In this document: positions 7,533 through 34,282 of the stretch, piece by piece
How the letters are laid out: each line of letters starts with the position of its first letter
Position numbering within the stretch: position 1 is the first letter of the stretch
Assembly (NCBI GenBank): GCA_013374835.1
Contig: CP055307.1
Location: forward strand, 146,622 to 210,621
Reading direction: 5' to 3'
Source: Candidatus Woesebacteria bacterium
Lineage (GTDB): Bacteria; Patescibacteriota; Microgenomatia; UBA8517
DNA length: 64,000 nt
Position numbers and translations under genes: made by a program
Notes under the pieces: model-generated
Database searches by the model: none
Seen by the model: the letters and a program-made list of their open reading frames with translations, nothing else
Told to the model about the DNA's origin: nothing

Positions 7533-7796
7533 ATGAACATAACAGTTTATACAACAACAACCTGTCCATATTGTAGAATGCTTAAAGAGTATTTTAATCA
7601 AAATTCGATTCCGTTTACTGAAAAACTTGTCGATCAAGATGATCAGGCAAGACAGCAAATGATGCTGGATTCAGGAGGATTTCTTGGGGTTCCGTTTACC
7701 ACAATAGAAAAAGAAGGTCTCCCCAAAGAAACCGTAGTTGGATTTGACAAAGCTAGATTAGATACTATCCTTGGTATTAATAATGATATTCATTAA
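7533..7796 (+). CDS. Glutaredoxin-like protein (NrdH/Grx, CPYC active site).
   Basis: MNITVYTTTTCPYCRMLKEYF... The ATG at 7533 is preceded by the SD AAAGGAGGTGA. The ORF track began at an upstream GTG. Confidence 0.8.
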   Translation: MNITVYTTTTCPYCRMLKEYFNQNSIPFTEKLVDQDDQARQQMMLDSGGFLGVPFTTIEKEGLPKETVVGFDKARLDTILGINNDIH

Positions 7797-18639: not shown

Positions 18640-19653
18640 ATGAAAATAATCAGAAAAGAAGAAGACGTATCCAATAAAGAAAGCACTTTTTCAAAAAAGA
18701 AAAAGCAAAAAAAGAACCCTTGGGGGAAAAAAGAAAGATTTGTTATTATCGGAATACTTTTTCTAACAGCGTTTTCATCGGCTATTTTGGCAATATCGGC
18801 AAGAAGCTGGAAACTACCCGGATTTCCAAAACTCAAAGCACCGTCTTTTGAATTTGAAAAAACCTACGTTTATGAAAAAGATATAATCAAAAAATCAGAT
18901 GAAAATATCGAAAAAATTAAAGAAATCTTTAAAAAAGAAACAAACAAACTCTCTGGAGTATATGCCTTTGAGGTGGTACTTCTTGATACAAACGTTGTTT
19001 TTGGTGTAAACGAACAAACAAAACTCCAAGCAGCCTCGTTAATTAAGTTACCCGTTATGGCTCTTTTATATGAAAAAGCGCAAACCGGTAGTCTAGATTT
19101 AGATTATACTTACACGCTTAAAAATTCAGATAAAAAAGCTGGATCCGGAAGTCTATATTCTAAGCCAGAAGGAACAAAAATAACATATAGGAATTTAGCT
19201 CAATTAATGGGTAAAGAATCCGATAACACAGCATTTGCTATAGCGGTAGATATTCTTGGCGAAGAAGAAATAGAAAGCTTTATAAAAAGAGTTGGCATGT
19301 ACGAGACTAGTTTAAGCGAAAATACCACAACCCCCTATGATATCGGCATTTTTTTTAAAAAGCTCTGGAGCGGGGATATCCTCAATCATCAATATAAGGA
19401 AGAATTATTAAATTCTCTAACAGATACAATCTACGAAGACTATTTGCCAAAAGGTATTCCTGAAGAAATTGATGTTTCCCACAAATACGGCCGAGAACTT
19501 CATGTGTTAAACGATGCTGGAATCGTCAGAAGTGAGCCCCCATTTGTTTTAGTTTTAATGAGCGAAGGAATCGTTGAATCCGAAGCTGAAAAAATCTTCC
19601 CAATATTATCAAGAAAGCTTTATCAAGAAATTACATCCCTTTATAAAATTTGA
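18640..19653 (+). CDS. Membrane-anchored class A beta-lactamase-like serine hydrolase (PBP-related).
   Basis: SxxK (ASLIKLP), SDN (KESDNTA) and a KTG-like HKYG motif behind an N-terminal TM helix. It is adjacent to two PBP1A genes. Confidence 0.65.
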   Translation: MKIIRKEEDVSNKESTFSKKKKQKKNPWGKKERFVIIGILFLTAFSSAILAISARSWKLPGFPKLKAPSFEFEKTYVYEKDIIKKSDENIEKIKEIFKKETNKLSGVYAFEVVLLDTNVVFGVNEQTKLQAASLIKLPVMALLYEKAQTGSLDLDYTYTLKNSDKKAGSGSLYSKPEGTKITYRNLAQLMGKESDNTAFAIAVDILGEEEIESFIKRVGMYETSLSENTTTPYDIGIFFKKLWSGDILNHQYKEELLNSLTDTIYEDYLPKGIPEEIDVSHKYGRELHVLNDAGIVRSEPPFVLVLMSEGIVESEAEKIFPILSRKLYQEITSLYKI

Positions 19654-21827
19654 GGTCCATTTTCACCTTCTTTTTTTTCAATAAAAGAGTTTGGGCTGCA
19701 GTGTTTGGTTGGTTTGTTCTCTTGCAAAAACCATTCTGAAATAGTAGGACATCCGGTACACGGCAAAGTCCCTAGAGTTTTGCATATCTCAAGCCGCACA
19801 AGTCCGTTTGGCACCCTCCATTCCACACTTTCCCTGCCAGAGAGTAGATGAATCATAATCTTATTCCATATCGGCGAAGCGCCTGTTACGCCTGAAGCAA
19901 TACTGCTCATTGGAGAGTTGTCGTTATTTCCAACCCAGGTAGCCACAAGGTAGTCTTGATTAAATCCGACAGTAAGATTATCTCTCAAATTATTACTGGT
20001 TCCGGTTTTTACAGCCACTTCGGGATGATTTGGTATTACAAGCATGCTGTTTATCCCAAAAGCAGGAGCTCTTGCAGAGTTATCTCGTAAAATATCAATA
20101 AGCATAAATGCAACTCTTTCGTCAAGCACTCTAATAAAACCGCATTTCTCCTCCGAGCCCTCCTTTGCGCTAACTTCTGCAAGAAATTGTTTGCAACCCT
20201 TAGAATATATGATTTTCCCCTCGGCATCGTATATTTTCTCTATGGAGCTTAAACTTGGACGCATTCCATAATTTGCAACCGTTGCGTAAGCAGTCGCAAG
20301 TTCGATAATTCGCACATCACCACCACCCAAAGTTAAAGATAATCCATAGTCCGATGCATCCTTCCAAGTTGAAATTCCCATTTTTTTTCCCAGCTCCACC
20401 ATTTTATCAACGCCGTATGAAGCAAGCGTTCTTACGGCAGGTACATTTCTTGACTCAGCAAAAGCACTTCTTAAACTAATATTCCCCCTAAATTTTCCGT
20501 CATAATTTTTAGGGGAATAAGGTTCAGTCCCTGCAACACGGAAAGTTATTGGTGAATCCTTTAGCAAAGAAGCGGGAGTATATCCATTTTCAAGAGCATA
20601 GGCATAATTTATAAGTTTTATCGAACTGCCTGGTTGCCTAAGCCTCAAAAGTACGTTTACGTTTCCATCCATTTCTGTATCAAAGTAATCCTTAGATCCG
20701 ACCATCGCCAAAATGTCACCATTTTTGGGATTAAGAACAATAGCAGCCCCATTTGATACATTTAAGTGTCGTATCGACTCTACTTCATTTTTTACTATTT
20801 CCTCCACCCTTTTTTGGAGCTTATAGTCAAGCGTTGTTACGATTTTAAGTCCGCCCTTAAGAACCATCGATTCGCCATATTTGTTAACCAGTTGATCTTT
20901 TACATACATAACAAAATGAGGTGCTTTTATCTCGGTTTTGTTTTTTGAAAATACAAGTTTTTCCTTTTTAGCCTTTTCTGCCTCCTCAAAAGTAATAAAT
21001 TCGTTCGAAACCATAAGATCAATCACTTCGTTTTGCCTTTGAATCGAAAGCTCGGGATTATTTCCAAAAGGGGAAAGCAGCGTTGGGCTTTTGGGCAATC
21101 CTGCCAAAAGCGCTGCCTCTGAAAGCGTAAGCTCGGAAACGTCCTTATCAAAATAAACTCTTGACGCTTCTTTAATCCCGTAAATACTACCTCCGTATGG
21201 AACCTCGTTTAGATACATTTCCAAAATTTCATCTTTTGAATATTTTCTCTCGACATCTATTGCAAGCAAAATCTCTCGCGCCTTTCTTTTTAAGGTTTTC
21301 TCTGGTGTAAGCAAGGCGTTCTTTACAAGCTGCTGTGTAATAGTCGAGCCGCCAGTAACTTTTCCTTCGTCTAAAAAAATACCCAAAGCACGGGTTATGC
21401 CCTTTATAGAAAAACCATGGTGTGAATAAAAATTAGCGTCCTCAGCAGCAAGAGTTGCAAGTTTTACGTTAAGCGGTATTTCAGTTAGCTTTACCCTGCT
21501 TCTGTTTTTGTCTTTATATATTTGATATAAAAGCACGCCGTTTCTATCGTAAATTTTGGTCGAGAGTTCAACATCCCTTTGTATAAGATCCTCGGCCCTA
21601 GGAAGATTGTGAAACAAAAAAGCCCACAGACCAAAAAAAACAAATACCAAAGTAAAATACAAAAAAGTTATCAAAAAAAGCAGTCTTTGAATGCCGCAAG
21701 ACAAGATTGTCCTCGGTAAAATAAAAAATGCCGAAAAAATTTTTCGCAACAGTAACAAAGCCAAATAAATTGTTTTATAAACAGGTTTTCCAATAAAGAC
21801 GAGGATGTATGCTGGTTTTGAAACCAT
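19641..21827 (-). CDS. Class A penicillin-binding protein (PBP1A family; GT51 transglycosylase + transpeptidase).
   Basis: GT51 region ATLAAEDANFYSHHGF; transpeptidase motifs SSIKLINYAYALE (SxxK), SRN and KTGT. Confidence 0.92.
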   Translation of the reverse strand: MVSKPAYILVFIGKPVYKTIYLALLLLRKIFSAFFILPRTILSCGIQRLLFLITFLYFTLVFVFFGLWAFLFHNLPRAEDLIQRDVELSTKIYDRNGVLLYQIYKDKNRSRVKLTEIPLNVKLATLAAEDANFYSHHGFSIKGITRALGIFLDEGKVTGGSTITQQLVKNALLTPEKTLKRKAREILLAIDVERKYSKDEILEMYLNEVPYGGSIYGIKEASRVYFDKDVSELTLSEAALLAGLPKSPTLLSPFGNNPELSIQRQNEVIDLMVSNEFITFEEAEKAKKEKLVFSKNKTEIKAPHFVMYVKDQLVNKYGESMVLKGGLKIVTTLDYKLQKRVEEIVKNEVESIRHLNVSNGAAIVLNPKNGDILAMVGSKDYFDTEMDGNVNVLLRLRQPGSSIKLINYAYALENGYTPASLLKDSPITFRVAGTEPYSPKNYDGKFRGNISLRSAFAESRNVPAVRTLASYGVDKMVELGKKMGISTWKDASDYGLSLTLGGGDVRIIELATAYATVANYGMRPSLSSIEKIYDAEGKIIYSKGCKQFLAEVSAKEGSEEKCGFIRVLDERVAFMLIDILRDNSARAPAFGINSMLVIPNHPEVAVKTGTSNNLRDNLTVGFNQDYLVATWVGNNDNSPMSSIASGVTGASPIWNKIMIHLLSGRESVEWRVPNGLVRLEICKTLGTLPCTGCPTISEWFLQENKPTKHCSPNSFIEKKEGENGPQIL

Positions 21828-21918
21828 ACCCTATATTATATCAATCACAACAGCCATTTTGGAGTAGGAATTTAAACGAATTGAACACAAAAATATGTCT
21901 ATAGTTGTAGAATAAGAA

Positions 21919-24171
21919 CTACTTTAGCGGGTAACTAACATTTACGCGATTCATCGGAAAAGGACACGTCAGACATATCATTGTGCCAAGAGGATCATAT
22001 ATTACCAAATGATTTTGCATTTCAATATTTTCAGTCGGAGTATCGGAAGAAGCAAGCGTTTGATTTATTCTATCTATTTGAACATCCTGCCTAGTAGCTA
22101 GATTTTTCTTTGGCAAATTATCTTTAAGAAAATATTCAAATCTTTTTGGACAATCAGCAGATTCGTTTTCGGGTAATCCGCCACTATCGGCACACACGCT
22201 AAGCCCGACAACTTCATCCGGCTTTGTCGGCCAGCCGTGTCCTTTATCCGAAGAATTATAAAATCCTTCTTCTGCTTTATCCAATACCTTTTTCATTATT
22301 CTGTTCCAAATAGGAGAGGCTCCGGATACGCCCGAAACAGCACCGCTCATAGATGTATAGTCGTTGTTTCCCACCCAAGTTAAAACCAAAGCATGTGATG
22401 TGTATCCGACAGTCCAGTTATCTCGAAGATCGTTAGTTGTTCCCGTTTTTACCGAAACCTCGGGATGGCCGCTTACATTAAGATACGAAGAGGCTCCAAA
22501 AGCAGAGGAACGCGCATTGTTGTCGTGAAGGATATGAGAAATTATAAATGCAACACCAGAATTAAGAACCCGTACGCCCTCGGCCTCATCTCTATCATAT
22601 TCAAAAAGTACTTTTCCCTTCCAATCCTCAACTTTAAGGATAGAAACAAGATCTTGTTTTATGCCTTGGTTGGCGAGCACTCCGAACGCAACTGCCATGT
22701 CATAAGGCATCACCTCTCCTCCGCCTAAGGTTAGAGACAGCCCATAATTTTCTGGATCTTTAAAAGTGGTTATGCCCATCTGTGTCGCAAAATCAATAAA
22801 ATTCTCTAAACCGTTAAGCGCAAGCACTCTGACGGCAGGAATGTTATAGGAATTTCCAAGTGCGAATCTTGCTTGTATAGCACCGTGAAATTGCCAGTCA
22901 TAATTTGAAGGACAATAAGGTTTCTGTCCTGCCACTAAAAAACAAGTTGGAACATCTGCAAGTGGTGTGCTGGCAGTTATCTTACCGTCTCTTATGGCCA
23001 GTGCATAATTTAAGGGTTTTATAGAACTTCCGGGTTGTCTTTTTGCGAAAATAATATTTACCTTACCGTCTTCATCCTCTGCGTTATAATTTTTTGAGCC
23101 GACCATAGCAAGTATTTCACCACTTTTAGGTCTTGTTACCAATGCGGCTCCATTACCGACATTTTGATTTTTGAGTTTTTCAACCTCATCGAGCACGATC
23201 TCCTGTGCATACTCTTGTAGCTCAAGATCAAGAGTGGTTGTTACACGAAGCCCCCCTTTCTCAACAACGTTGTCACCATATTCTTTTGCAAGTAATTCTT
23301 TAACCCAAAGCGCAAAATGTGCTGCCTTTAGATCTTTCGCTTCAGCATACTTAAGCTCCTCACTAAGAGCTTGTTCCGCTTCTTCCTCAGTAATATATTT
23401 ATCTTCAACCATCCTTTTTAAAACAAGAGCTTGTCGCTCTTTTGCATATTCGGGATGGGCTCCAAAAGGAGAGTAAAGAGTTGGGGCCGCAGTTAGTCCT
23501 GCTAAAAGTGAAGACTCAGCCAAGGTCAAATCCTCTGCATTTTTGCCGAAATAAAGCTCGGATGCCGACCCGATGCCGTAAGCTGTTGATCCATAAGGGA
23601 CCTGGTTTAAATACATCTCCAATATTTTATCTTTCGGATATCTAAGCTCAACAAGTACGGCCAAAACAAACTCACGGACCTTTCGCTTAATTGTTCTCTC
23701 TGGCGTTAGAAGAGAATTTTTTACAAGCTGCTGCGTAAGAGTGGACCCGCCCTCAAGCTTTTTCCTGAAAATAGTTTTGTATAAAGCTCTGCTCATCCCG
23801 CTAATCGAAAACCCGGGGTGTTTATAAAAATCTTTGTCCTCAATGGCTATCGTGGCTTTTTTAACATGATCGGGAATTCTCTCAAGAGGTATTGGATTTC
23901 TTCTTTGATCGGTATATATTTCATAAATTAATTTCCCTTTTCTGTCATAAAGCTTAGTGGAAATGGCTTGGTCCTTAGAAATATCACCAGTGAAGGGTAT
24001 ACCCCAAAAAAACCACAAACTGAGAATTAAAAAAACAAAAGTTGCCCCTGCAATAACTTTTTTCTTTTTTGAAAGGCTAATTTTTAACAAACGTTTTTTT
24101 TTCTCAAACTGTTGGCCTTGACGCTTTTTGCGCTTCGAATCGGATTTTGTCATGAAGAAATTATACCTCAA
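21919..24171 (-). CDS. Class A penicillin-binding protein (PBP1A family), a paralogue of the previous gene.
   Basis: ATIAIEDKDFYKHPGF, GSSIKPLNY and KTGTTND. The start may be the internal Met at about 24153. Confidence 0.92.
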   Translation of the reverse strand: MRYNFFMTKSDSKRKKRQGQQFEKKKRLLKISLSKKKKVIAGATFVFLILSLWFFWGIPFTGDISKDQAISTKLYDRKGKLIYEIYTDQRRNPIPLERIPDHVKKATIAIEDKDFYKHPGFSISGMSRALYKTIFRKKLEGGSTLTQQLVKNSLLTPERTIKRKVREFVLAVLVELRYPKDKILEMYLNQVPYGSTAYGIGSASELYFGKNAEDLTLAESSLLAGLTAAPTLYSPFGAHPEYAKERQALVLKRMVEDKYITEEEAEQALSEELKYAEAKDLKAAHFALWVKELLAKEYGDNVVEKGGLRVTTTLDLELQEYAQEIVLDEVEKLKNQNVGNGAALVTRPKSGEILAMVGSKNYNAEDEDGKVNIIFAKRQPGSSIKPLNYALAIRDGKITASTPLADVPTCFLVAGQKPYCPSNYDWQFHGAIQARFALGNSYNIPAVRVLALNGLENFIDFATQMGITTFKDPENYGLSLTLGGGEVMPYDMAVAFGVLANQGIKQDLVSILKVEDWKGKVLFEYDRDEAEGVRVLNSGVAFIISHILHDNNARSSAFGASSYLNVSGHPEVSVKTGTTNDLRDNWTVGYTSHALVLTWVGNNDYTSMSGAVSGVSGASPIWNRIMKKVLDKAEEGFYNSSDKGHGWPTKPDEVVGLSVCADSGGLPENESADCPKRFEYFLKDNLPKKNLATRQDVQIDRINQTLASSDTPTENIEMQNHLVIYDPLGTMICLTCPFPMNRVNVSYPLK

Positions 24172-24192: not shown

Positions 24193-24711
24193 TTGTTAAT
24201 ATATAATTTAAGTTCAATGAATACACTAACTTCAAAACCGTGGTGGAATTATTTGCAAAACGATATTAAAGACTTGCTTGGTGAATCCTTTCTCCTTCTT
24301 GAAAAATCCAAAACGTGGAGAAAAAAGTTTCATGACTATTCGTTTGTAGTATTTCCCGCATCCAAAGCCTATGAGGGATTTTTGAAAATATTACTTCTGG
24401 ACATGGGTCTTATTACGAAAAAAGATTATTTCGGCAAGCATTTTCGCATAGGAAAATCTCTTAATCCGAGTCTAGATGTTAAGTATCGAGATGAAAGCTG
24501 GGTATACGACAATCTTGCTAATTTTTGTAAAAGCGAAAAATTGCCCCAAAAATTATGGAAAACATGGAAAACGGCAAGGAATTTAGTCTTTCACTGGTTT
24601 CCGAACGAAGTAAATGCAATTACACTGCCCGAGGCCGAAGACAGAATAAGGCTCATAATAGAATCAATCGATTTAGTCTATACGGAATGTGGTGTAAAAT
24701 TAATTAGATGA
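24193..24711 (+). CDS. Hypothetical protein with a HepT-like HEPN signature (R-N-x3-H-x-F).
   Basis: TARNLVFHWFPNE matches Rx4-6H / RNxxxHxY-like. The predicted protein is about 170 aa, alpha-helical and small. It overlaps the next gene by 4 nt. Confidence 0.35.
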   Translation: MLIYNLSSMNTLTSKPWWNYLQNDIKDLLGESFLLLEKSKTWRKKFHDYSFVVFPASKAYEGFLKILLLDMGLITKKDYFGKHFRIGKSLNPSLDVKYRDESWVYDNLANFCKSEKLPQKLWKTWKTARNLVFHWFPNEVNAITLPEAEDRIRLIIESIDLVYTECGVKLIR

Positions 24712-26077: not shown

Positions 26078-26142
26078 ACACATTTAGTGTTAGAATATTG
26101 TGAATATCACTGGAAATAGTGTTTTTCTATTTCACAAGTGAA
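26078..26142 (+). promoter_or_regulatory. Cluster of CAC/GTG palindromes upstream of nrdR-nrdJ, candidate NrdR boxes and promoter.
   Basis: ACACATTTAGTGT (26078-26090), GTGAATATCAC (26100-26110), CACTGGAAATAGTG (26108-26121) and TTCACAAGTGAA (26131-26142). The 2nd and 4th palindrome centres are about 31.5 bp apart, as in tandem NrdR boxes. A possible promoter is TTGACA at 26070 and TAGAAT at 26091. Confidence 0.45.
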
Positions 26143-26146
26143 ATAT

Positions 26147-26593
26147 ATGAAATGCCCTTTTTGCAATGCAGACGAAACCCACGTACTGGAATCAAGAGCA
26201 ATAGAAGATGGGCGGGTTATAAGAAGAAGGCGGAAATGCATTAAGTGCAAAAAGCGCTTTACAACATACGAAAGCATAAAAAAAAGCGTCCTTTGGGTTG
26301 TCAAAAAGAGTGGTAACAGAGAGCCTTTCGATAAAGAAAAAATTAAAAGAGGTATTTTAAGAGCAATTGAAAAAAGACCTGTATCTCTTGATCTCGTAAA
26401 CGATATCGTAGATCAGGTAGAAAGAGAAATGCTCAAAAAAGAAAAAGAAGAAGTCCCATCCCGCTGGATAGGGAACGAAGTTTTAAAAAGGTTGATAAAA
26501 ATCGACAGAGTAGCCTGGCTTAGATTTGCAAGCGTATATTTGGAGTTTGAGGAACTCAAAGATTTTGAAAACGCAATAATCAAAAAAAAGTAA
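26147..26593 (+). CDS. nrdR: Transcriptional repressor NrdR (zinc ribbon + ATP-cone).
   Basis: MKCPFCNADETHVLESR...CIKCKKRFTTYE followed by an ATP-cone. The ORF track started at an upstream GTG. Confidence 0.93.
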   Translation: MKCPFCNADETHVLESRAIEDGRVIRRRRKCIKCKKRFTTYESIKKSVLWVVKKSGNREPFDKEKIKRGILRAIEKRPVSLDLVNDIVDQVEREMLKKEKEEVPSRWIGNEVLKRLIKIDRVAWLRFASVYLEFEELKDFENAIIKKK

Positions 26594-26594
26594 T

Positions 26595-29045
26595 ATGGTA
26601 ACAAAAAAGAAGCAGCTTAATTTAGAGAGCCTAACATTTCCTTCATATGAGGAAATCAAAACTATAACAGAAAAAAGAGTAGGCAAGATGCCGAAGTTGC
26701 CAAAGGCTCTTCCAAAAGGAGATTGGTCCGAGCAGGCACTAAAAGTGCTGGAAGAAAGATATCTGCAAAGAAATATTAATAACGAAGTGAACGAAACCCC
26801 TGAAGAAATGATCTGGAGAGTTTCCTGGGAAATAGCTTCCGCGGAAGCGATCTGGGGTAAAAAAAGGTCAGAAGTTAGAAACAAAGCAATAGAATTCTAC
26901 AAGCTTCTTATAAGCCGCGAGTTTCTTCCGAATTCGCCAACCCTTATGAACGCCGGTACCGGAAACATGCTTCAATTTTCAGCGTGTTTTGTTCTTCCCG
27001 TAGACGATTCAATGGAGGGAATTTTTGACGCACTCAAATTCCAAGCATTAATACACAAAAGCGGGGGCGGAACCGGCTTTTCCTTCAGCCGCTTAAGACC
27101 TAAAGGATCCTTAGTTAAAAGTAGCAAAGGTACGGCATCGGGTCCAGTTTCGTTTATGAGGGTGTTCGACGCGGCAACGAATGAAGTAAAGCAGGGGGGG
27201 AAAAGAAGGGGGGCAAACATGGGTATCTTAAGAGTTGATCATCCGGACATTTTAGAATTTATCCACTGTAAAGAAGAGGGCGGAATTACAAACTTTAATA
27301 TATCAGTTGCAATTACGGACAAATTTATGGAAGCTTATGAAAAAGACGAAAACTACGACCTTTTAGATCCGAGAACACAAAAAAAGATAGGATCTCTTTC
27401 GGCGCGAAAAGTATTTACACAGATTGCTGAAGCTGCATGGAGAACGGGCGATCCGGGATTAATCTTTATAGATAGGATAAACATGTCCAAAGCAAATCCC
27501 GTACCATCACTTGGTCCTATCGAATCAACTAATCCATGTGGTGAACAGCCTTTATACCCCTTTGACTCCTGCAATCTTGGGAGTATTTTTTTAAGCTATT
27601 TTGTAAAAGAAGATAATAGTGGAGCAAAATCGGTAGATTGGGATAAATTAAAAAAAGTAACAAGACAAGCTGTGAATTTTTTGGACAACGTAATCGAGCT
27701 AAATCCTTATCCACTTGAGGAAATTAGAAGAATTTCCCTTGCAATAAGAAGAATAGGTCTTGGTGTAGGCGGATGGGCTGATATGTTAATCGATTTGGGC
27801 ATACCCTACGATTCTGAGCAAGCTCTCAGACTGGGAGAGAAAATTATGAAAACAATTAGCGAAGAAGCAGTAGCGGCTTCCGAGGATTTGGCTAAAAAAC
27901 GAGGCCCTTTTCCTCTTTGGCCGATTAGTATCTATAAAAACGATAAACCAAGAAGAAATTCAACAGTTACAACAATTGCTCCAACAGGCACAATTTCTAT
28001 AATTGCAGGCACATCAAGTGGTATAGAGCCGATTTTTGCAATAGCATTCCAGCATATTGTAAAAGATAAACATTTAGAAAGAACGCTAAATTTCATAAAT
28101 CCAAAATTCGAAGAAATAGCACGAAAACAGGGGTTTTGGTCCGAAGAAATAGAAAAAAAAGTATCAGAACACGGCACAATTAGAAGTATTGAAGAAATAC
28201 CCGAAGAAGTAAGAAACATATTTGGTACCGCCCACGAAATCCACCACGATTGGCATATAAAAATGCAGTCAGCCTTCCAAAAATATACGGAAAATGCAGT
28301 AAGTAAAACTATAAACCTAAGAAACGAAGTAACTCCTGAAGATGTAAAACAATCTTATGTTCTAGCTTGGAAAACGGGCTGCAGCGGAATCACTGTTTTC
28401 AGAGACGGCTGTAAAAACGCTCAAGTATTAAATCTCGGCATCAAAGAAGAAAAAGAGGGAGAAAAAGGCAATGGAATTATAAAACCAACAGAAGAACGCC
28501 CATTCAAAGTATCAGGTGCCACATACAAACTCAAAACTCCGGTAGGCACGGCCTTTATTACCATAAATGAGGACGACAAAGGCGAACCGATCGAAATATT
28601 TATAAACGTAGGCAAGGCCGGCAGTGATATTACAGCAGTCGCAGAAGCGCTCGGGCGCACGGTTTCAACAGCGCTTAGATTTAAAGGTGTGCTTAGCCCA
28701 AGACAAAGGGCGATAGAAATAGCTAGTCAGCTTTCTGGGATCGGAGGAAGAAGGTCTGTCGGCTTCGGTCCCAACAAAATTCGCTCTCTTCCAGATGCTG
28801 TTGCTGTTGCTCTTTCAAACCATCTTGGTTTTAAGATAAATGGAACTTATCACGAACAGGTAACAGACTCCGAAAAGCTCTATTTGAACAACAAAGAAGG
28901 TCAAGCATATAATTTTACTCAAACACAAGCTGCTTTGGAAATTGTATCGATTAAAGCGGATATTTGCCCTGTTTGTGGAGCAAACGCTTTAGTTTATGAA
29001 GAAGGGTGTGAAAAATGTCACGTCTGTGGTTATTCGGAATGTTAA
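26595..29045 (+). CDS. nrdJ: Class II (adenosylcobalamin-dependent) ribonucleotide reductase.
   Basis: 816 aa with LMNAGTGNMLQFSACFVLPVDDSMEGIF, NPCGEQPL and a C-terminal Cys zinc finger (CPVCG...CEKCHVCG). Confidence 0.9.
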   Translation: MVTKKKQLNLESLTFPSYEEIKTITEKRVGKMPKLPKALPKGDWSEQALKVLEERYLQRNINNEVNETPEEMIWRVSWEIASAEAIWGKKRSEVRNKAIEFYKLLISREFLPNSPTLMNAGTGNMLQFSACFVLPVDDSMEGIFDALKFQALIHKSGGGTGFSFSRLRPKGSLVKSSKGTASGPVSFMRVFDAATNEVKQGGKRRGANMGILRVDHPDILEFIHCKEEGGITNFNISVAITDKFMEAYEKDENYDLLDPRTQKKIGSLSARKVFTQIAEAAWRTGDPGLIFIDRINMSKANPVPSLGPIESTNPCGEQPLYPFDSCNLGSIFLSYFVKEDNSGAKSVDWDKLKKVTRQAVNFLDNVIELNPYPLEEIRRISLAIRRIGLGVGGWADMLIDLGIPYDSEQALRLGEKIMKTISEEAVAASEDLAKKRGPFPLWPISIYKNDKPRRNSTVTTIAPTGTISIIAGTSSGIEPIFAIAFQHIVKDKHLERTLNFINPKFEEIARKQGFWSEEIEKKVSEHGTIRSIEEIPEEVRNIFGTAHEIHHDWHIKMQSAFQKYTENAVSKTINLRNEVTPEDVKQSYVLAWKTGCSGITVFRDGCKNAQVLNLGIKEEKEGEKGNGIIKPTEERPFKVSGATYKLKTPVGTAFITINEDDKGEPIEIFINVGKAGSDITAVAEALGRTVSTALRFKGVLSPRQRAIEIASQLSGIGGRRSVGFGPNKIRSLPDAVAVALSNHLGFKINGTYHEQVTDSEKLYLNNKEGQAYNFTQTQAALEIVSIKADICPVCGANALVYEEGCEKCHVCGYSEC

Positions 29046-29049
29046 TTAT

Positions 29050-29589
29050 ATGTCTATCTACACCAAAAAGGGGGACAAAGGAACAACATCGCTTTTTAAC
29101 CCCGCACTTTACAAAGAAAAAAGAATTCCAAAAAGTGCCCAAAGAATAAGAGTAATAGGCGAAATAGATGAACTAAATAGCTTTCTTGGTATTATTTCAT
29201 CCAAAATTAGAAATAAAGATACTAAAAAATTTATTATCAAAATTCAAAAAAATTTATTTACCATAAACGCTGTTATTGCAGGTGCCAAATTGTCTTTCAA
29301 AAACGAAGAAACAAAGTTTTTGGAAAAAAAGATTGACAAAATCGAAAAATTGCTTCCGCCGCTCAAAAATTTCATAATACCGGGCGGAGACACTCTGGCC
29401 AGCGAAGTTATGTACGCTCGCACAATAGCAAGAAGGGCAGAAAGAGAGCTTGTTGCTTTGAGCAAAAAGGAAAAAGTCAAACCAAGCCTGCTCAAATACA
29501 TTAACAGACTTTCTGACGCTCTCTTTATGGTCTCAAGAAACATAAATTTTGCAAAAGGCAAAAAAGAGACTCCTTGGAAGCCTCGCTAA
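29050..29589 (+). CDS. PduO-type ATP:cob(I)alamin adenosyltransferase.
   Basis: MSIYTKKGDKGTTSL matches the PduO consensus YTRTGDKGTTSL. About 180 aa. It makes functional sense next to the B12-dependent RNR. Confidence 0.85.
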   Translation: MSIYTKKGDKGTTSLFNPALYKEKRIPKSAQRIRVIGEIDELNSFLGIISSKIRNKDTKKFIIKIQKNLFTINAVIAGAKLSFKNEETKFLEKKIDKIEKLLPPLKNFIIPGGDTLASEVMYARTIARRAERELVALSKKEKVKPSLLKYINRLSDALFMVSRNINFAKGKKETPWKPR

Positions 29590-29608
29590 AGGTGTTAAAA
29601 TAAGCTAT

Positions 29609-29944
29609 ATGGTTGTACCCCCCGAGAAGGAATCGGTTCTAAAAGAATTTGAAATACCCGACGAGCCTGAAATTGGCGAAGGCGCAAGAGAAGCGGGTGT
29701 TTCTGTGCGTCCAGTGTATCCCAGGGTGCCTCCACCTCTTACGCCAAGTAGCGGAGCAACGACCCTTCAAAGAAGAGAAAAAAATGTTCGAAGCGTTGAA
29801 TTTGCTTATCCACAAAATGTATATGAAGATATGTCAAAAGGTTCAGCGTCTGATTCTAAGACCTGGTACGGTGTATTTAATTTAAGAAGAATCAAAAAAG
29901 CACTATTAAAAGGTTTAAGAGTAATTTTAAAAGCAGAAAAATGA
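29609..29944 (+). CDS. Hypothetical Pro-rich small protein in a locally GC-rich segment. The coding status is uncertain.
   Basis: About 50% GC versus about 36% in the flanks, with two overlapping ORFs in different frames (29549..29944 and 29649..29885). Confidence 0.3.
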   Translation: MVVPPEKESVLKEFEIPDEPEIGEGAREAGVSVRPVYPRVPPPLTPSSGATTLQRREKNVRSVEFAYPQNVYEDMSKGSASDSKTWYGVFNLRRIKKALLKGLRVILKAEK

Positions 29945-32283
29945 ATACTTCCACACTCACCCAAAGCATTACAGTTTTTTTCATCTTTTTGTTTTTGTTG
30001 ACATTTTTTTTCATTTTATTTGGCTTTATTGCTTGGTCAATAGCTCTTTATTATCGGCAAAAAGAAAGAGAAAAAAAGTCTCTTGAAGCAGTTCTTCTTC
30101 AGGTTGCCACTCCTAGAGGAAATGAAATAAAGCCGGACGCAATGGAGCAGTTAATAGGGGCTCTCCATTCTATAAAAAAAAGTGGTTGGAAAACACGAAT
30201 CTATGGCCAACCATGTATATCTTTTGAAATAGTAGCCAAACGGGAGGACATTAGATTTTATGTTTGGACGTTTAAAAACCAAAAAGATCTTTTAGAAAAA
30301 CAAATCCACGGCGCTTATCCCGATGCACAAATAACAGAAGTTCCCGAATACAATATATTTTCAGAAAACGGAAAGGTGGCATATAAAGCACTTCAATTAA
30401 AAAAAGATAATTTTTATCCGATAAAGACATTTAAAGAACTGCCCACAGATCCGCTCGCATCAATCACTTCTTCTCTGGCAAAAATGGGGGAAAATGAAGC
30501 CGCATCAATTCAAATCCTTATTTCTCCCGTCGATTCGTCCTGGCAAACCCAAGGCAAAAATTACATTTCACAAACAAAAAAACAGGAATCCGATCCAGAA
30601 AAAGCAAAATATTCTGTGCCAGTCAAAACCCTAGAGGCTGTAGAGAATAAAATCTCAAAGCCCGGCTTTGAGGTTTCAATTAGGCTGGTAGTGGTTTCGG
30701 AAACAGAGGATTCCGCTAAGGCGCACCTAGGAAATGTAGTAAGCGCTTTTTCACAATTCGATGGAGACTTAAACGGCTTTGGTTCAAGAAAAATAAGAAA
30801 CAAAGGGGCATTTATCGAAGATTTTATTTACAGATATCACCCCCTTTTCCATTTTGGCAAAAATAGAATATCAATCCTAAACGCGGAAGAAATCGCCACA
30901 ATTTTTCATTTTCCAAACAAACTTATAACAACACCGCATATCTACTGGCTTAACGCAAAGCGCGCTCCGGCACCAGCAGAAATACCTACACAAGGACTCT
31001 ATCTTGGCATAAGTAGCTATAGAGGCGTAAAACGTGAAGTCTTCATTTCGGATCCGGATAGATTAAGGCACATGTATATAATTGGACGCACAGGTACGGG
31101 TAAATCCGAGTTTCTCAAAAACATGATCAGGCAGGATATAAACGAAGGAAAGGGTTTGTGTTTTATGGATCCTCACGGAGATGCAGTAGAAGACATTCTA
31201 AATTTTATCCCACCAGAACGCGCAGAAGACGTTATTTATTTTCGCCCGTCCGACTCAGAAAGACCAATGGGACTAAATCTTCTGGAAGCTAAAACAGAAG
31301 ACCAGCAGCATTTTGCAGCAACAGCGGTTATTAATATGATGTACAAGCTCTTTGATCCCTACAAAACCGGAATAGTAGGTCCTAGATTTGAACATGGTGT
31401 AAGAAATGCAATGCTTACAGTAATGCAGGGAATGGAAGGGGGAACATTTATAGAAGTAATGAAAGTAATGACAAACTCACGTTTTGTCCAGGAACTTTTG
31501 CCGAGAGTTAAGGATCCAATAGTCAGAAGTTATTGGCAAGACCAAATTGCTCAAACTTCAGATTTTCATAAATCCGAAGTTCTTGACTATACTGTTTCTA
31601 AATTTGGCCGCTTCGTGACAAACAGAATGGTACGCAACATAATCGGTCAATCAAAATCTTCCTTCTCATTTAGAGACATAATGGATAACGGCAAAATCCT
31701 GCTTATCAACCTTTCCAAGGGAGAGCTGGGCGAGGAAAACAGTAGCTTTCTGGGTCTGGTTCTTGTACCAAGAATACTTATGGCCGCTATGAGTCGATCG
31801 GATATTCCTGAAGAAAATAGGCGTGACTTTTATCTTTATGTAGACGAGTTTCAGAATTTTGCAACGCCCGATTTTGCTCAGATTTTATCCGAGGCAAGAA
31901 AATACAAGTTAAGCTTGACTGTTGCAAACCAATTCATAGGTCAAGTTGATGAGGAGGTAAAAAACGCTGTATTTGGAAACGTTGGAACCCTAATTTCATT
32001 TAGAGTTGGGGTTAATGACGCAAACTACTTAACCCACGAATTTAGCCCTGTTTTTGGCGAAGATGATCTCTTAAACATTGAGCGCTATCATGCTTTTGTC
32101 AAAACAATTGTTAACAACGAACCCGTACCTCCTTTTTCAATGGATACAACAATGAATTTGGAAGAAATCGCAAAAAAAAGAAACATCAAAGTAGCCGAAG
32201 TTATCAAAGAAATGAGCAGACTAAAATACGGTAAGGATGTAAGGTTGGTAGAATCGGAAATAAATTCAAGAGCAAAGCTTTAA
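29941..32283 (+). CDS. Membrane-anchored HerA/FtsK-superfamily P-loop ATPase (DUF87 / VirB4-VirD4-TraD-like conjugation-type ATPase).
   Basis: N-terminal hydrophobic hairpin. Walker A GRTGTGKSEF is followed by CFMDPHGD (the DPHGE motif of the HerA/VirB4 family), and Walker B is LYVDEFQNF. The 330-aa N-terminal domain is of unknown type. Confidence 0.65.
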   Translation: MNTSTLTQSITVFFIFLFLLTFFFILFGFIAWSIALYYRQKEREKKSLEAVLLQVATPRGNEIKPDAMEQLIGALHSIKKSGWKTRIYGQPCISFEIVAKREDIRFYVWTFKNQKDLLEKQIHGAYPDAQITEVPEYNIFSENGKVAYKALQLKKDNFYPIKTFKELPTDPLASITSSLAKMGENEAASIQILISPVDSSWQTQGKNYISQTKKQESDPEKAKYSVPVKTLEAVENKISKPGFEVSIRLVVVSETEDSAKAHLGNVVSAFSQFDGDLNGFGSRKIRNKGAFIEDFIYRYHPLFHFGKNRISILNAEEIATIFHFPNKLITTPHIYWLNAKRAPAPAEIPTQGLYLGISSYRGVKREVFISDPDRLRHMYIIGRTGTGKSEFLKNMIRQDINEGKGLCFMDPHGDAVEDILNFIPPERAEDVIYFRPSDSERPMGLNLLEAKTEDQQHFAATAVINMMYKLFDPYKTGIVGPRFEHGVRNAMLTVMQGMEGGTFIEVMKVMTNSRFVQELLPRVKDPIVRSYWQDQIAQTSDFHKSEVLDYTVSKFGRFVTNRMVRNIIGQSKSSFSFRDIMDNGKILLINLSKGELGEENSSFLGLVLVPRILMAAMSRSDIPEENRRDFYLYVDEFQNFATPDFAQILSEARKYKLSLTVANQFIGQVDEEVKNAVFGNVGTLISFRVGVNDANYLTHEFSPVFGEDDLLNIERYHAFVKTIVNNEPVPPFSMDTTMNLEEIAKKRNIKVAEVIKEMSRLKYGKDVRLVESEINSRAKL

Positions 32284-32310
32284 AAATTTTGCTAAAATAC
32301 CCTAAGTTTA

Positions 32311-32383
32311 GGATGCGTAGCTCAGTGGTTAGAGCACCGATCTTATAAGTCGGGGGTCGATGGTTCAAATCCATCCGCATCCA
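32311..32383 (+). tRNA. tRNA-Ile with anticodon UAU (TAT).
   Basis: Manual fold: acceptor GGATGCG/CGCATCC, D-arm GCTC-AGTGGTTA-GAGC, anticodon stem CCGAT/GTCGG with loop CTTATAA (U33, anticodon TAT, A37), T-arm GATGG-TTCAAAT-CCATC, discriminator A. Confidence 0.8.
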
Positions 32384-32429
32384 CCCTATAAGCCTCGGAA
32401 TTGAAAGAACATGCTAGCTTGATTATATA

Positions 32430-32681
32430 ATGGTGATTAAACTCCAAAGATCGTTTCTTGATTTAAACTACAATTATTCAATGCCAAATAGAAAATCGAG
32501 GCCTTTAGGTAGATCGAGAAGTACTTGTTATTTGAGCGTGGTATGCCCAAACAATATCAGAAATATTGTTTGGGATTATCTTGCATCAGGCACTCTCGAC
32601 ACTGATACAAGATTGTCCCTGCATTCAGAAGAAAACTTTGCCGATGCTTTGGAAAAGATGAATATCCTGAAGAATATATAA
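32430..32681 (+). CDS. Doubtful small ORF (83 aa) between tRNA-Ile and the recombinase. It may be non-coding and could contain an att-like region.
   Basis: Odd composition (S/R/N/C-rich) and no recognisable motif. Confidence 0.15.
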   Translation: MVIKLQRSFLDLNYNYSMPNRKSRPLGRSRSTCYLSVVCPNNIRNIVWDYLASGTLDTDTRLSLHSEENFADALEKMNILKNI

Positions 32682-32691
32682 CAAAACCATT

Positions 32692-33555
32692 TTAGAGCTC
32701 CTCAAGCTGCTGCTTTTTTCCGGGTTCTTTAATTTCGGCAAGCTCCAAATAACGCTCTGTAGTAGAAAGTCTCTTATGTCCTACAGCGTGAGATATGGTT
32801 ACCAGGTCGACATTTCTTTTAAGATTCTCAACTATAAAAGTAGTTCTAAGATCATTAACGGAATATTCCGGTATTTCGGCCTTTTGCATATACCTATCAA
32901 TTGCAGCACGTATATTTCGAACAGCTAAAGGCTTCCCGTTTTTGCTGACAAAAAGATATTCGGACTTAGTGTTCGGCCTTATTCTTATATATTCTTCAAT
33001 TGCAACCAAGGCGGCTCTGTTAAGTTGTACCGTCCTTTCGGGTTGTGTGGCGTAGGATTCAATAACTACGCGATCCTTTTTGATATTGTTAAACTTTAGA
33101 TTCGCAACCTCGGAAATTCTCATTCCCGTCTGGAGAATAAGCTCAACAATAGCGGCAATTCTGGGATCCGTTCTAACAACGTCTCTTAGAGCCCTATACT
33201 CAAGTTGAGACAAAAATTTTGGCAAAGAAGTCTTAATTTTAGGGTGGTCAACATCTTGTGAAGGATCGCTCGAAATAATTTTTTTATCCTTAATCCATCT
33301 AAAAAAGGTTTTTATCGCATTAAGCTTTCTGGATACGGTTTTGGGAGTGTATTTTTGATTCAATAGAAAATCGCGAAATCCCTCAAGATCACCTTGCTTA
33401 ATGTGGCTTGGGAGGACCTTGTTGTGTTGTGCAAGAAAGTCAACAAGCTGCTCAAGATCAGATTTATAGGCTAAAATCGTAGAAGGTGAACGGCCTTTTT
33501 CCTTTAAATCATCTATGAATTTTGGCAGAAGAGATTTTAGCGATTCCTCATTCAT
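32692..33555 (-). CDS. Tyrosine site-specific recombinase (XerC/XerD-like or integrase).
   Basis: N-terminal SAM-like domain (TILAYKSDLEQLVDFL); catalytic GMRISE (Arg) and HAVGHKRLSTTERYL (H-x-x-R ... Y). Confidence 0.85.
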   Translation of the reverse strand: MNEESLKSLLPKFIDDLKEKGRSPSTILAYKSDLEQLVDFLAQHNKVLPSHIKQGDLEGFRDFLLNQKYTPKTVSRKLNAIKTFFRWIKDKKIISSDPSQDVDHPKIKTSLPKFLSQLEYRALRDVVRTDPRIAAIVELILQTGMRISEVANLKFNNIKKDRVVIESYATQPERTVQLNRAALVAIEEYIRIRPNTKSEYLFVSKNGKPLAVRNIRAAIDRYMQKAEIPEYSVNDLRTTFIVENLKRNVDLVTISHAVGHKRLSTTERYLELAEIKEPGKKQQLEEL

Positions 33556-34101: not shown

Positions 34102-34171
34102 TGCGGGGTAGTGTAGGGTTGCACGGAAGGCTCATAATCTTCCAGACCGGGTTCAACTCCCGGCCCCGCAA
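34102..34171 (+). tRNA. tRNA with anticodon CAU (Met elongator, or Ile2 if lysidinylated).
   Basis: Manual fold: acceptor TGCGGGG/CCCCGCA, anticodon stem GAAGG/TCTTC with loop CTCATAA, T-arm CCGGG-TTCAACT-CCCGG. The D-loop and variable loop are short, and pair 1-72 is U-A. Confidence 0.6.
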
Positions 34172-34206
34172 CAAGATAGCGCTAATAGCCAGCAAGTTTA
34201 GTATAG

Positions 34207-34279
34207 GCCAGGGTAGCTCAGTCGGCAGAGCACAGGATTCATAAACCTGCGGTCGTGGGTTCGATCCCCACCCCTGGTA
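34207..34279 (+). tRNA. tRNA with anticodon CAU (Met, fMet or Ile2 cannot be distinguished).
   Basis: Manual fold: acceptor GCCAGGG/CCCTGGT (G1-U72), D-arm GCTC-AGTCGGCA-GAGC, anticodon loop TTCATAA, T-arm GTGGG-TTCGATC-CCCAC, discriminator A followed by CC. Confidence 0.7.
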
Positions 34280-34282
34280 CCG

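Follow-up and report, generated by a model that had tools for sequence, protein, structure and literature searches.

The locus lies in a 64-kb stretch of DNA from a Candidatus Woesebacteria bacterium, referred to here as the window. Its features are as follows.

29609..29944, + strand: small partner gene, 111 aa (ATGA overlap, conservation, dN/dS and public gene calls)
29941..32283, + strand: membrane-anchored ATPase, 780 aa, of the VirD4/TraD/TrwB type IV coupling protein lineage, with a VirB4-like N-terminal domain (Pfam DUF8128)
29965..30054, + strand: single N-terminal transmembrane helix, about residues 9-38, then RQKEREKK (sole hydrophobic segment; AlphaFold)
30076..30990, + strand: DUF8128 domain, residues 46-350, an alpha/beta fold resembling the VirB4 N-terminal domain
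30991..32145, + strand: P-loop motor domain, about residues 351-735
31084-31107, + strand: Walker A GRTGTGKS, residues 382-389
31297-31650, + strand: all-helical insertion, residues 453-570, between Walker A and B, at the site of the TrwB all-alpha domain
31834-31860, + strand: Walker B LYVDEFQNF, residues 632-640
32146..32283, + strand: conserved C-terminal helical tail, residues 736-780, ...IKEMSRLKYGKDVRLVESEI... (predicted helices; alignments)
32311..32385, + strand: intact tRNA-Ile(UAU), anticodon TAT (ARAGORN; Rfam 75 bits)
32386..32691, no strand: variable spacer, 306 bp, between tRNA and recombinase
32546-32574: unique 12-5-12 palindrome in the spacer
32692..33555, - strand: chromosomal Xer-like tyrosine recombinase, 287 aa (Phage_integrase 100 bits and SAM-like N-domain)

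The small upstream gene

Several open reading frames overlap in 29549-29964, as the original prediction had noted, but only 29609..29944 is a real gene; the others are shadow frames. The stop codon of this gene overlaps the start of the ATPase gene (ATGA), public annotation pipelines call it, and it is conserved in loci L001-L003 with 30-38% identity and shared motifs. Its dN/dS of 0.30 against L088, with 6, 5 and 13 substitutions at the first, second and third codon positions, indicates purifying selection. The protein evolves fast. Its N-terminal half is acidic and proline-rich (net charge -4) and probably disordered, and the basic C-terminal segment (net charge +8, ...SKTWYGVFNLRRIKKALLKGLRVILKAEK) probably forms a helix. 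The protein has no match in Pfam, NCBIfam or PADLOC. Of 83 loci, about 65 have a small open reading frame on the same strand directly before the ATPase start. These frames comprise at least four unrelated sequence types, and given that the small partners of different lineages share no detectable homology, a common adaptor function is an assumption.

The stretch 29590-29940 had been described as about 50% GC in a 36% GC context. The measured content is 40.5%, which 28% of all 351-nt windows equal or exceed, and the mean of the whole window is 38.2%. A content of 52% is confined to 29610-29780, where a 130-nt core (53%) ranks in the top 0.7% of 130-nt windows. GC by codon position in the 111-aa gene is 0.68, 0.51 and 0.37, the last (GC3) being close to the 38% mean of the window. 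The excess thus resides in the first two codon positions and reflects amino-acid composition (P, E, V, R, G) rather than foreign DNA; the GC bump is the Pro/Glu/Arg-rich N-terminal half of a genuine gene.

Conservation of the locus and the neighbours of the ATPase

The two genes belong to a block with the order NrdR, B12-dependent ribonucleotide reductase, adenosyltransferase, small open reading frame, 780-aa ATPase, tRNA-Ile(UAU), Xer (- strand), DivIC, TrpRS and FtsH, which is identical in all Woesebacteria genomes examined. The pairing of the ATPase with tRNA-Ile reaches across Microgenomates and Dojkabacteria. The ATPase is found in at least 599 genome loci of Woese-, Levy-, Davies-, Dojka-, WWE3, Sacchari-, Berkel-, Magasanik-, Peregrini- and Gracilibacteria, and among 50% identity clusters 6,110 representatives match it at E<1e-30. 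The best 120 of its more than 5,699 database matches are Woesebacteria proteins, 70-79% identical, and identity declines from 72% to 38% as taxonomic distance grows. Purifying selection is strong on both the ATPase (dN/dS 0.05) and the recombinase (dN/dS 0.10). With high confidence, the genes at 29609-29944 and 29941-32283 are a core pair rather than a mobile element. They form a chromosomal, vertically inherited and translationally coupled operon that is spread across the ultra-small Patescibacteria (CPR). The tRNA-Ile, spacer and Xer recombinase lie beside this operon without belonging to it.

The recombinase was originally taken to be divergently oriented. A tyrosine recombinase is indeed present, but it faces the ATPase and tRNA genes tail-to-tail, in convergent orientation, and is divergent only from divIC. 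The suggestion that it might be a chromosomal Xer is borne out. Its best scores are to XerC (157.6 bits), XerA (155.7 bits) and XerD (155.6 bits), each about half its curated cut-off, and it is kept at the same position in 20 loci with 38-79% identity. As an ATPase neighbour it occurs in Microgenomates and Dojkabacteria only. Like XerC, XerD and XerA, it is the product of a fixed-position chromosomal gene and combines a SAM-like N-domain with a catalytic domain in which Arg-I, Arg-II, His-III and the Tyr nucleophile are kept. Unlike them, it has Asn in place of His-II (NDLR), as do 22 of 22 members of the lineage, and it lacks the lysine of the GKGxKxR hairpin; nor was a dif site identified for it.

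The predicted tRNA-Ile(UAU) and the spacer of about 300 bp are both present. The tRNA gene is found at this position in L001-L003 and L088 and in the majority of Microgenomates and Dojkabacteria loci. In L087 an insert splits the resident tRNA, and the tRNA-Ile(UAU) detected there is the inserted copy only. In both L087 and L003 the anticodon loop carries an insertion or a partial duplication, and the gene may be a recombination hot spot. The spacer is absent in L001 and L002 and has a non-homologous counterpart in L003. It is homologous to a 119-aa open reading frame of L087-L089, of which the window copy has a 54-nt deletion and frameshifts; it has no Pfam match, and its palindrome is imperfect in relatives. 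It is the decayed remnant of a small lineage-specific open reading frame and lies outside the ATPase module.

A tRNA gene beside a tyrosine recombinase is the classic signature of an island, and the locus had been read as a possible remnant integrative or DNA-transfer module. The variable spacer and the altered tRNA genes of L087 and L003 would suit a decayed integrative or conjugative element that has kept its integrase and a leftover transfer ATPase. Such an element is nevertheless very improbable here. The block is syntenic in every close relative examined, with identity that tracks taxonomy, and the recombinase is Xer-like. None of three tRNA segments tested is repeated in the 64-kb window with up to 3 mismatches allowed; the tRNA-Ile is a conserved neighbour, not an attachment site. 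The GC3 close to the window mean, the strong selection on ATPase and Xer, the lack of a relaxase, VirB4 or other transfer genes in the approximately 58 kb scanned, and the restriction of relatives on viral contigs to the ATPase domain also argue against this reading.

The ATPase and its relatives

The 780-aa reading frame and its P-loop motifs, including CFMDPHGD at residues 407-414, are as originally predicted. The N-terminal transmembrane hairpin is not, since the protein has one hydrophobic segment and AlphaFold models residues 3-48 as one continuous helix, indicating a single membrane anchor. The remainder is predicted to be cytoplasmic by the positive-inside rule. An alignment of diverse family members shows invariant catalytic residues. 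The tail, with helices at residues 740-744, 749-763 and 767-779 (AlphaFold), is conserved in alignments A2 and A5. Matches to HTH families all fall short of threshold (RecQ-1-like_HTH, 21 bits where 27 are required), and the tail may be a small HTH-like element for binding nucleic acid or a partner.

Pfam, NCBIfam, PDB and Foldseek comparisons support the predicted placement of the ATPase in the HerA/FtsK superfamily of P-loop proteins, within the VirB4/VirD4 branch. Its nearest kin are the VirD4-family coupling proteins (TrwB of R388, TraD, DotL/IcmO and Cag-beta), especially the second ATPase of monoderm (FATA-type) conjugation loci. Like these proteins, it has an N-terminal membrane anchor and a P-loop motor with an all-helical insertion between Walker A and B. 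Pfam TrwB_AAD_bind and TraG-D_C exceed their cut-offs, and the best PDB sequence matches are DotL and TrwB. In contrast, the NCBIfam TraD/VirD4 models match far below their cut-offs (47 versus 366 bits), the ATPase has one membrane helix where two is usual, and TrwB lacks the 300-aa VirB4-like domain found here between anchor and motor. The ATPase gene also differs in being chromosomal, vertically inherited, unlinked to relaxase, VirB4 or transfer genes, and paired with a small upstream gene.

The resemblance to VirB4 (TrwK of R388 and VirB4 of Thermoanaerobacter pseudethanolicus) is structural, with an alpha/beta domain at the N-terminus that precedes a motor domain, and Foldseek aligns TrwK collinearly over the whole chain (E 1e-16). 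In Pfam and NCBIfam, however, VirB4 sequence families give no significant match (best 13.4 and 12.9 bits), with CagE_TrbE_VirB and AAA_10 giving none. The ATPase also brings its own membrane helix, and a separate, true VirB4 adjoins its homologue in plasmid loci. The label "coupling protein" is a judgement, the architecture being equally VirB4-like and VirD4-like.

The other original proposal, a CPR-specific DNA-uptake ATPase, holds in part. The family is spread throughout the CPR, but Bacillus, actinomycetes and haloarchaea carry full-length homologues on plasmids. In plasmid conjugation loci of monoderms they hold the coupling-protein slot beside a true VirB4 and near a relaxase-like gene. 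On an Embleya plasmid the homologue (BLASTP 1e-68, residues 83-764) directly follows a true VirB4 (CD1110, 266 bits) and precedes a replication-relaxation gene, and on a Bacillus plasmid another homologue lies within the conjugation region.

FtsK and SpoIIIE are, like the ATPase, membrane-anchored members of the ring translocase superfamily. A substitute for FtsK that acts as a pump for chromosomal DNA at the division septum and switches on the Xer beside it would explain the vicinity of xer and divIC, and the order ATPase, tRNA, Xer (- strand), DivIC is retained in 16-20 loci of Microgenomates and Dojkabacteria. The membrane anchor and the small conserved helical tail would also fit. This role is improbable, given that the Xer neighbourhood is lineage-specific: Xer and DivIC do not adjoin the ATPase in the Saccharibacteria, Parcubacteria-like lineages and Gracilibacteria among the loci compared. 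Moreover, Pfam FtsK_SpoIIIE covers the P-loop only, at 19.9 bits against a cut-off of 24, a profile search detected no Ftsk_gamma domain, the plasmid homologues serve conjugation loci, and the saccharibacterium TM7x has an annotated ftsK gene. Anti-phage defence by a HerA-type or MADS mad8-type ATPase is less probable still. The mad8 match is limited to the generic motor domain, no MADS, Dnd or Sir2 component is adjacent, and a near-universal, vertically inherited gene at a fixed locus is unlike a defence island.

A possible motor for a type IV system

The best explanation overall, with a probability of roughly 55%, is an operon of a small partner and a type IV coupling-lineage motor that serves a patescibacterial type IV system. 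That the ATPase itself works with a type IV system is proposed more tentatively, at slightly less than an even chance. No type IV secretion gene, including VirB4, VirB6 and relaxase, was found in the approximately 58 kb of the window scanned, and none recurs beside the ATPase in 80 related loci, so it is homology only that points to the partnership.

Orphan VirD4-type homologues of Patescibacteria were reported in 2025 (Quinonero-Coronel et al. 2025, PMC12102498). Like the ATPase, which may belong to them, they are chromosomal, near-universal in the phylum, seldom located by virB4 and without a relaxase; the portions of that paper considered here do not mention a VirB4-like N-domain or a conserved upstream partner gene. 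They number 5,713 in 2,918 of 3,035 genomes, a count that may include the ATPase family. The virB4 gene occurs in 2,417 genomes, and just 148 of the homologues lie close to it (PMC12102498). The occurrence of coupling-protein homologues in 96% of genomes, versus 80% for VirB4, implies that some act without a type IV system. In Southlakia epibionticum a coupling-protein homologue, not necessarily an orthologue of the ATPase, is non-essential for epibiotic growth, whereas other type IV genes are essential (PMC12102498).

It is conceivable, if unlikely, that the anchored ring and its small partner carry DNA or RNA through the cytoplasmic membrane independently of a VirB4-based machine. A translocase of this kind might resemble Streptomyces TraB or the archaeal Ced ATPases and might serve the uptake of host nucleic acid. 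The abundance of the coupling-protein family in the CPR relative to VirB4, which it almost never adjoins (PMC12102498), the lack of nearby type IV genes and the conserved tail with its sub-threshold HTH matches are consistent with such a role. Host RNA uptake has been reported for a cultivated patescibacterium, with the mechanism unresolved there (10.64898/2026.06.21.733656, 2026 preprint). Weak NCBIfam matches to CedD (22.5 bits) and CedB (17.2 bits), confined to the P-loop region, point the same way but are far below cut-offs of 600-700 bits. One membrane helix cannot form a channel, so another protein such as ComEC or VirB6 would have to supply the pore, and the plasmid homologues are located in VirB4-containing loci.

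In the favoured explanation, the single N-terminal helix anchors the VirB4-type domain and the coupling-lineage P-loop motor, with its intact Walker motifs and all-helical insertion, to the membrane. By analogy with TrwB, DotL and VirB4, the protein would be expected to form a hexameric ring on the cytoplasmic side of the membrane, where ATP would power the recruitment of a polymer substrate or its thrust into a membrane channel. [quoted passage not shown] The small protein encoded upstream is probably an adaptor or regulator of the motor specific to its lineage, a role comparable to that of CagZ for Cag-beta and of the DotL adaptors.

Gene order around the ATPase

The ATPase gene had been proposed to lie in the remnant of an integrative or DNA-transfer module at tRNA-Ile(UAU). 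The features concerned are as follows.

Features of the ATPase locus
29609..29944 (+), partner gene, 111 aa, whose N-terminal half is a GC-rich stretch of 170 nt
29941..32283 (+), ATPase, an ORF of 780 aa
32311..32385 (+), tRNA-Ile(TAT)
32692..33555 (-), tyrosine recombinase, 287 aa

The ORFs and RNAs named in the original prediction, including the 780-aa ORF, are all present where it placed them. The recombinase, described as divergent, is instead convergent with the ATPase gene and the tRNA. These genes are part of a longer block with a fixed order: NrdR, ribonucleotide reductase, cobalamin adenosyltransferase, small ORF, ATPase and tRNA-Ile(UAU), followed by Xer(-), DivIC, tRNA-Met, TrpRS, a tRNA-binding protein and FtsH. 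Three long contigs of Woesebacteria (0.5-0.9 Mb) and the closest relatives were compared and all show this order, with no presence/absence polymorphism of the block in any relative examined. The ATPase is present throughout the Patescibacteria (CPR; 80 species-level genomes), and its identity declines with taxonomic distance, from 72% in Woesebacteria to 55-62% in other Microgenomates, 44-47% in Dojkabacteria and WWE3, and 38-43% in Saccharibacteria, Parcubacteria-like groups, Peregrinibacteria and Gracilibacteria. The tRNA-Ile(UAU) is found 3' of the ATPase gene in most Microgenomates and Dojkabacteria loci, even where no Xer gene is adjacent. Xer and DivIC come next in 16-20 loci, and only in Microgenomates and Dojkabacteria.

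The 3' end, anticodon arm and 5' end of the tRNA have no second copy in the 64 kb at up to 3 mismatches, so the suggested att site is not found. No VirB4, VirB6 or relaxase gene occurs in the approximately 58 kb of the window scanned with Pfam, where the genes are housekeeping genes plus one distant IS transposase, and none recurs beside the ATPase gene in 80 related loci. The block has dN/dS values of 0.05-0.30 and a GC3 near the window mean of 38%, and viral contigs contain only motor-domain relatives of the ATPase. Synteny, the lack of an att repeat and the Xer type of the recombinase together refute the proposed integrative or DNA-transfer remnant. The block is core chromosome rather than an island, the candidate mobile element can be struck off, and the ATPase itself is very unlikely to be a leftover of one. 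The only mobile-element gene in the scanned parts is a DDE transposase (rve_3, rve, HTH_32) at 5283-6245 (-), 24 kb away.

The original prediction allowed that the recombinase could be a chromosomal Xer, and this is supported by its conserved chromosomal position (syntenic in 20 loci) and by Xer models scoring highest. XerC, XerA and XerD match about equally, at 155-158 bits, below all curated Xer cut-offs (220-335 bits). The full Xer catalytic set is R-K-H-R-H/W-Y. Unlike XerC and XerD, the window recombinase lacks this full set: throughout the Microgenomates/Dojkabacteria lineage (window plus 21 homologues) both Arg, His-III and Tyr are retained, His-II is replaced by Asn (NDLR for HxLR) and the hairpin Lys is missing (window ...SYATQPERTVQL versus GKGxKxRxVPL). 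The sole palindrome near the recombinase gene, a perfect 12-5-12 repeat at 32546-32574, has no second copy in the window, and the first four related loci lack it. The terminator scan flagged it only as a weak terminator-like hairpin. Considered as a dif site or terminator, it was rejected as a conserved site because its copies in the closest relatives are imperfect. Promoter and terminator scans gave results at chance level.

Several other genes in the window and its relatives were recorded. The conserved run at 26138-29589 encodes NrdR, a class II-type ribonucleotide reductase with a TSCPD domain and a PduO-type cobalamin adenosyltransferase; it would be a self-contained adenosylcobalamin supply for the reductase. 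The adenosyltransferase ORF (197 aa) and that of the reductase share 50 nt, and a later start chosen by some gene callers shortens the adenosyltransferase to 179 aa. The gene at 24193-24711 (+), kept in position in the related loci L002 and L087, encodes a small protein with matches to the RnlA-toxin DNA-binding and HEPN RNase LS domains (28 and 22 bits). At 19641-24171 (-), two class A penicillin-binding proteins (728 and 750 aa) are encoded in tandem, both combining a transglycosylase with a transpeptidase domain; a beta-lactamase-fold protein adjoins them at 18640-19653 (+). The 447-aa ORF at 49738-51081 (+) and the 179-aa ORF at 53195-53734 (+) have no Pfam match at E<=0.001.

Partner gene, spacer and tRNA-Ile

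The stop of the partner gene overlaps the ATPase start codon (ATGA). Three other Woesebacteria genomes have the gene at the same position, at 30-38% identity, and the Woesebacteria copies share the motifs PE.E, IPEEPEI and WSKGSPSDSKTW.GV..LRKIKKA. Comparison with a close relative gives dN/dS = 0.30, with 6/5/13 substitutions by codon position. The region 29590-29940 had been described as about 50% GC in a 36% GC context. Its measured value is an unremarkable 40.5%, with 52% reached only in 29610-29780, and the window average is 38.2%. Since the GC excess of the partner gene is at codon positions 1 (0.68) and 2 (0.51), with GC3 at 0.37, the bump is a product of a peptide rich in Pro, Glu, Val, Arg and Gly, not of foreign DNA. 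The "anomaly" is thus accounted for as ordinary coding sequence, and the overlapping ORFs reported in two frames are, apart from 29609..29944, shadow frames in a segment poor in stops. Between 28500 and 35000, Rfam (E<=1) detects only three tRNAs and chance matches, indicating that neither the GC-rich stretch nor the spacer is a known structured RNA.

A same-strand ORF, 100-190 aa long, stops no more than a few bases from the ATPase start in approximately 65 of 83 loci. These small ORFs fall into at least four sequence types.

Sequence types of the small ORFs abutting the ATPase start
Type A, Microgenomates and Dojkabacteria, the window included: LP[IL]T..E..G...S.[RK]W[LV]..W..R..K
Type B, Magasanik-, Falkow- and Uhrbacteria-like groups: KGEETA...WLK.IPGVNKFFLEQEAKIKTDKI
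Type C, Saccharibacteria: DLIEKEWV.KAK.IV..TK.DPY...KADY.KKRY
Type D, three loci

No homology between the types was detectable with hhalign (probability <0.3%), no Pfam family was found for the ORFs, and a common origin was dropped on these grounds. A word-indexed protein search retrieved only 2 close relatives. In all type representatives examined, the N-terminal region is of low complexity and the C-terminal region after it is short, conserved and, in our reading, helical. No other neighbour is conserved phylum-wide beside the ATPase gene in 80 related loci. By sequence comparison, the partner thus appears to hold its place before the ATPase gene in most loci, yet to be unrelated between CPR classes. 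Its position suggests a fast-evolving adaptor or regulator.

Other neighbours are group-specific. Among the type B loci L046-L078, a conserved protein of approximately 211 aa and unknown function (…GVFDGQQMVGPDGKQYSMPANYASKSKLVEGD…) follows the ATPase in 15 loci, with DnaX after it in 11 (genes +1 to +3 after the ATPase). Saccharibacteria have a ComM-like gene upstream of the ATPase gene and two genes for membrane proteins downstream.

The Woesebacteria loci L001 and L002 lack the spacer at 32386..32691, their tRNA lying directly against the xer stop, and the equivalent stretch of a third, L003, is not homologous. The closest relatives have a 119-aa ORF of unknown function in this place. In the window, a 54-nt deletion and frameshifts leave only its last approximately 40 codons in frame; the spacer is a decaying accessory ORF.

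A tRNA-Ile with a genuine UAU anticodon is uncommon in bacteria, in which AUA is usually read by a lysidine-modified CAU tRNA. The tRNA-Ile(UAU) adjoining the ATPase gene is conserved across Microgenomates and Dojkabacteria, and in the window two CAU tRNAs come after it (34102-34172 and 34207-34281). In L087, from a close relative, a 131-nt insert interrupts the anticodon loop of the tRNA-Ile(UAU) (7752-7957, corresponding to window 32311-32385) and is bounded by a direct repeat of 7 nt, TTATAAG. Within the insert, a second complete tRNA-Ile(UAU) (ARAGORN 7809-7882; Rfam 78 bits) lies between short inverted repeats. The window and the related loci L088 and L089 do not have the insert. At approximately 8410-8640 in L003, a tRNA-Ile 5' half is followed by ...GAAGCTTGTAAACA..., a junction like that of L087, upstream of an intact tRNA-Ile; a decayed 3' half may lie downstream. 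Because the two junctions are of the same kind, the sequences suggest recurrent insertion or replacement at tRNA-Ile in Woesebacteria.

Identity and relatives of the ATPase

The assignment of the ATPase to the HerA/VirB4/TraD class is upheld. Coupling-protein models of Pfam are passed (TrwB_AAD_bind, 33 bits, cut-off 20.5; TraG-D_C, 28.4, cut-off 22), DUF87 is also above its cut-off, and a profile of 36 homologues has DotL and TrwB as its best relatives of solved structure (PDB). NCBIfam TraD/VirD4 models rank first yet remain far below their cut-offs (for example, SXT_TraD, 47 bits versus 366). The P-loop motifs had been placed correctly: Walker A at residues 382-389, CFMDPHGD at 407-414 and Walker B at 632-640. 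An alignment of 23 sequences, with identity as low as 32%, shows no variation in Walker A, Walker B and several Arg, Lys and Gln residues downstream of them; the ATPase is therefore very probably active, as judged from these residues. The family comprises 23,434 cluster representatives (50% identity) at E<1e-3 and 6,110 at E<1e-30.

In the AlphaFold model (pLDDT 84.7), a long helix at the N-terminus precedes an alpha/beta domain (residues 46-350); the RecA-type motor, which contains an all-helical insertion (residues 453-570), comes next and ends in a small helical tail. The anchor is a single hydrophobic segment of approximately 30 residues modelled as one continuous helix, not the N-terminal transmembrane hairpin originally described. 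Coupling proteins typically have an N-terminal anchor of two helices, and within their nucleotide-binding domain an all-alpha domain, of which the all-helical insertion is a candidate counterpart. The ATPase resembles VirD4, TraD and TrwB in its FtsK/HerA-superfamily P-loop motor with Walker A and B and in matching coupling-protein models, but differs in anchor topology and in having no type IV or relaxase genes alongside, which the plasmid homologues have. It has the N-terminal domain plus C-terminal motor and the fold of VirB4, whereas the VirB4 families CagE_TrbE_VirB, TIGR00929 and CD1110 are unmatched; two VirB4-type models reach only 13.4 and 12.9 bits, compared with 266 bits for a VirB4 from Embleya against CD1110. 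Profile comparison with PrgJ and PcfC of pCF10 matched only the Walker B region, about equally, and so does not discriminate between VirB4 and VirD4. DUF8128, the Pfam domain at residues 46-350, is a VirB4-type N-terminal domain, and the family consequently seems to link the two type IV ATPases structurally. A literature search found no mention of DUF8128, and the passages on type IV secretion returned by a non-exhaustive search mention neither a VirB4-type N-domain nor a partner gene.

It is unlikely that the ATPase acts with Xer in the manner of FtsK. Its C-terminal tail is similar to the RIGYNRAARIIE motif, but an FtsK gamma domain was dropped as a candidate because Pfam gives no Ftsk_gamma match. 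Unlike FtsK and SpoIIIE, the ATPase does not combine an FtsK_SpoIIIE motor with a C-terminal gamma (winged-helix) domain; moreover, its Pfam score falls short of the cut-off, its structure is less similar and only some lineages have the Xer neighbourhood. HerA has a HAS-barrel N-domain and a motor and is usually paired with NurA or a defence effector. The N-domain of the ATPase matches that of VirB4 rather than a barrel, the helicase_HerA model scores 12 bits (cut-off 970), and no NurA or Sir2 gene neighbours the ATPase gene. Participation in a defence system, to which a PADLOC match could point, is very unlikely, since that match is to the generic mad8 motor domain only.

A tblastn search of plasmids with the ATPase returned 631 records, and in 61 of these the match, at 24-30% identity, spans 80% or more of the protein. 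Among the hosts are Bacillus, Streptomyces and its relatives, Staphylococcus, haloarchaea and Sulfolobus. One Embleya plasmid encodes, in this order, PrgI (VirB3-like), XF1762, a true VirB4, the full-length homologue (matched by BLASTP at 1e-68 across residues 83-764), a replication-relaxation protein and an NlpC/P60 hydrolase. The homologue on a Bacillus subtilis plasmid shares its region with TcpD, TcpE and further conjugal-transfer genes. These contexts indicate that the family fills the coupling-protein slot of monoderm-type conjugation systems, in agreement with a 2025 study that derives the patescibacterial type IV system from monoderm conjugation machinery (PMC12102498). The same study reports 5,713 VirD4-type homologues in 2,918 of 3,035 Patescibacteria genomes, only 148 of them near virB4, with relaxases almost absent (PMC12102498). 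The window's ATPase is a new member of this family, already noted as orphan coupling-protein homologues of Patescibacteria. A second architecture (P0198-P0258 and others) has the same motor, approximately 50% identical, at the C-terminus of proteins of approximately 1,440 aa, and C-terminal extensions up to 2,006 aa occur in other relatives. The published counts imply a second coupling-protein-like copy in each CPR genome, which these proteins may represent.

Possible functions of the ATPase and its partner

In the best-supported model, the ATPase would be a membrane-tethered ring that recruits a polymer substrate to a channel or drives it in, with the small partner protein modulating the motor. 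The likeliest channel would be a type IV system encoded elsewhere. Counting against a type IV channel, no type IV genes are linked to the ATPase gene, VirB4 is less widespread than the family, and a Southlakia coupling-protein homologue is reported as non-essential (PMC12102498). An ATPase acting on its own as a nucleic-acid translocase is a serious alternative, which gains some interest from a preprint on host-RNA uptake without a known mechanism (10.64898/2026.06.21.733656).

A bolder version of the type IV model is that the near-universal CPR pair is an inward-pumping motor that imports host nucleic acid into epibionts, an idea we consider improbable, with perhaps one chance in ten of being correct. 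The small adaptor and the membrane-anchored ATPase, joining a VirB4-type N-domain to a coupling-protein-type motor, would dock on the channel or pilus of the type IV system and operate it backwards, much as the archaeal Ced system uses a VirB4-like machine for import. The rapidly diverging partner would then tune the motor to host or substrate.

The ATPase gene is among the most conserved families of unknown function in Patescibacteria. The locus itself is not surprising; the VirB4-type N-domain and a partner gene conserved in position but unrelated in sequence may help experiments on this family.
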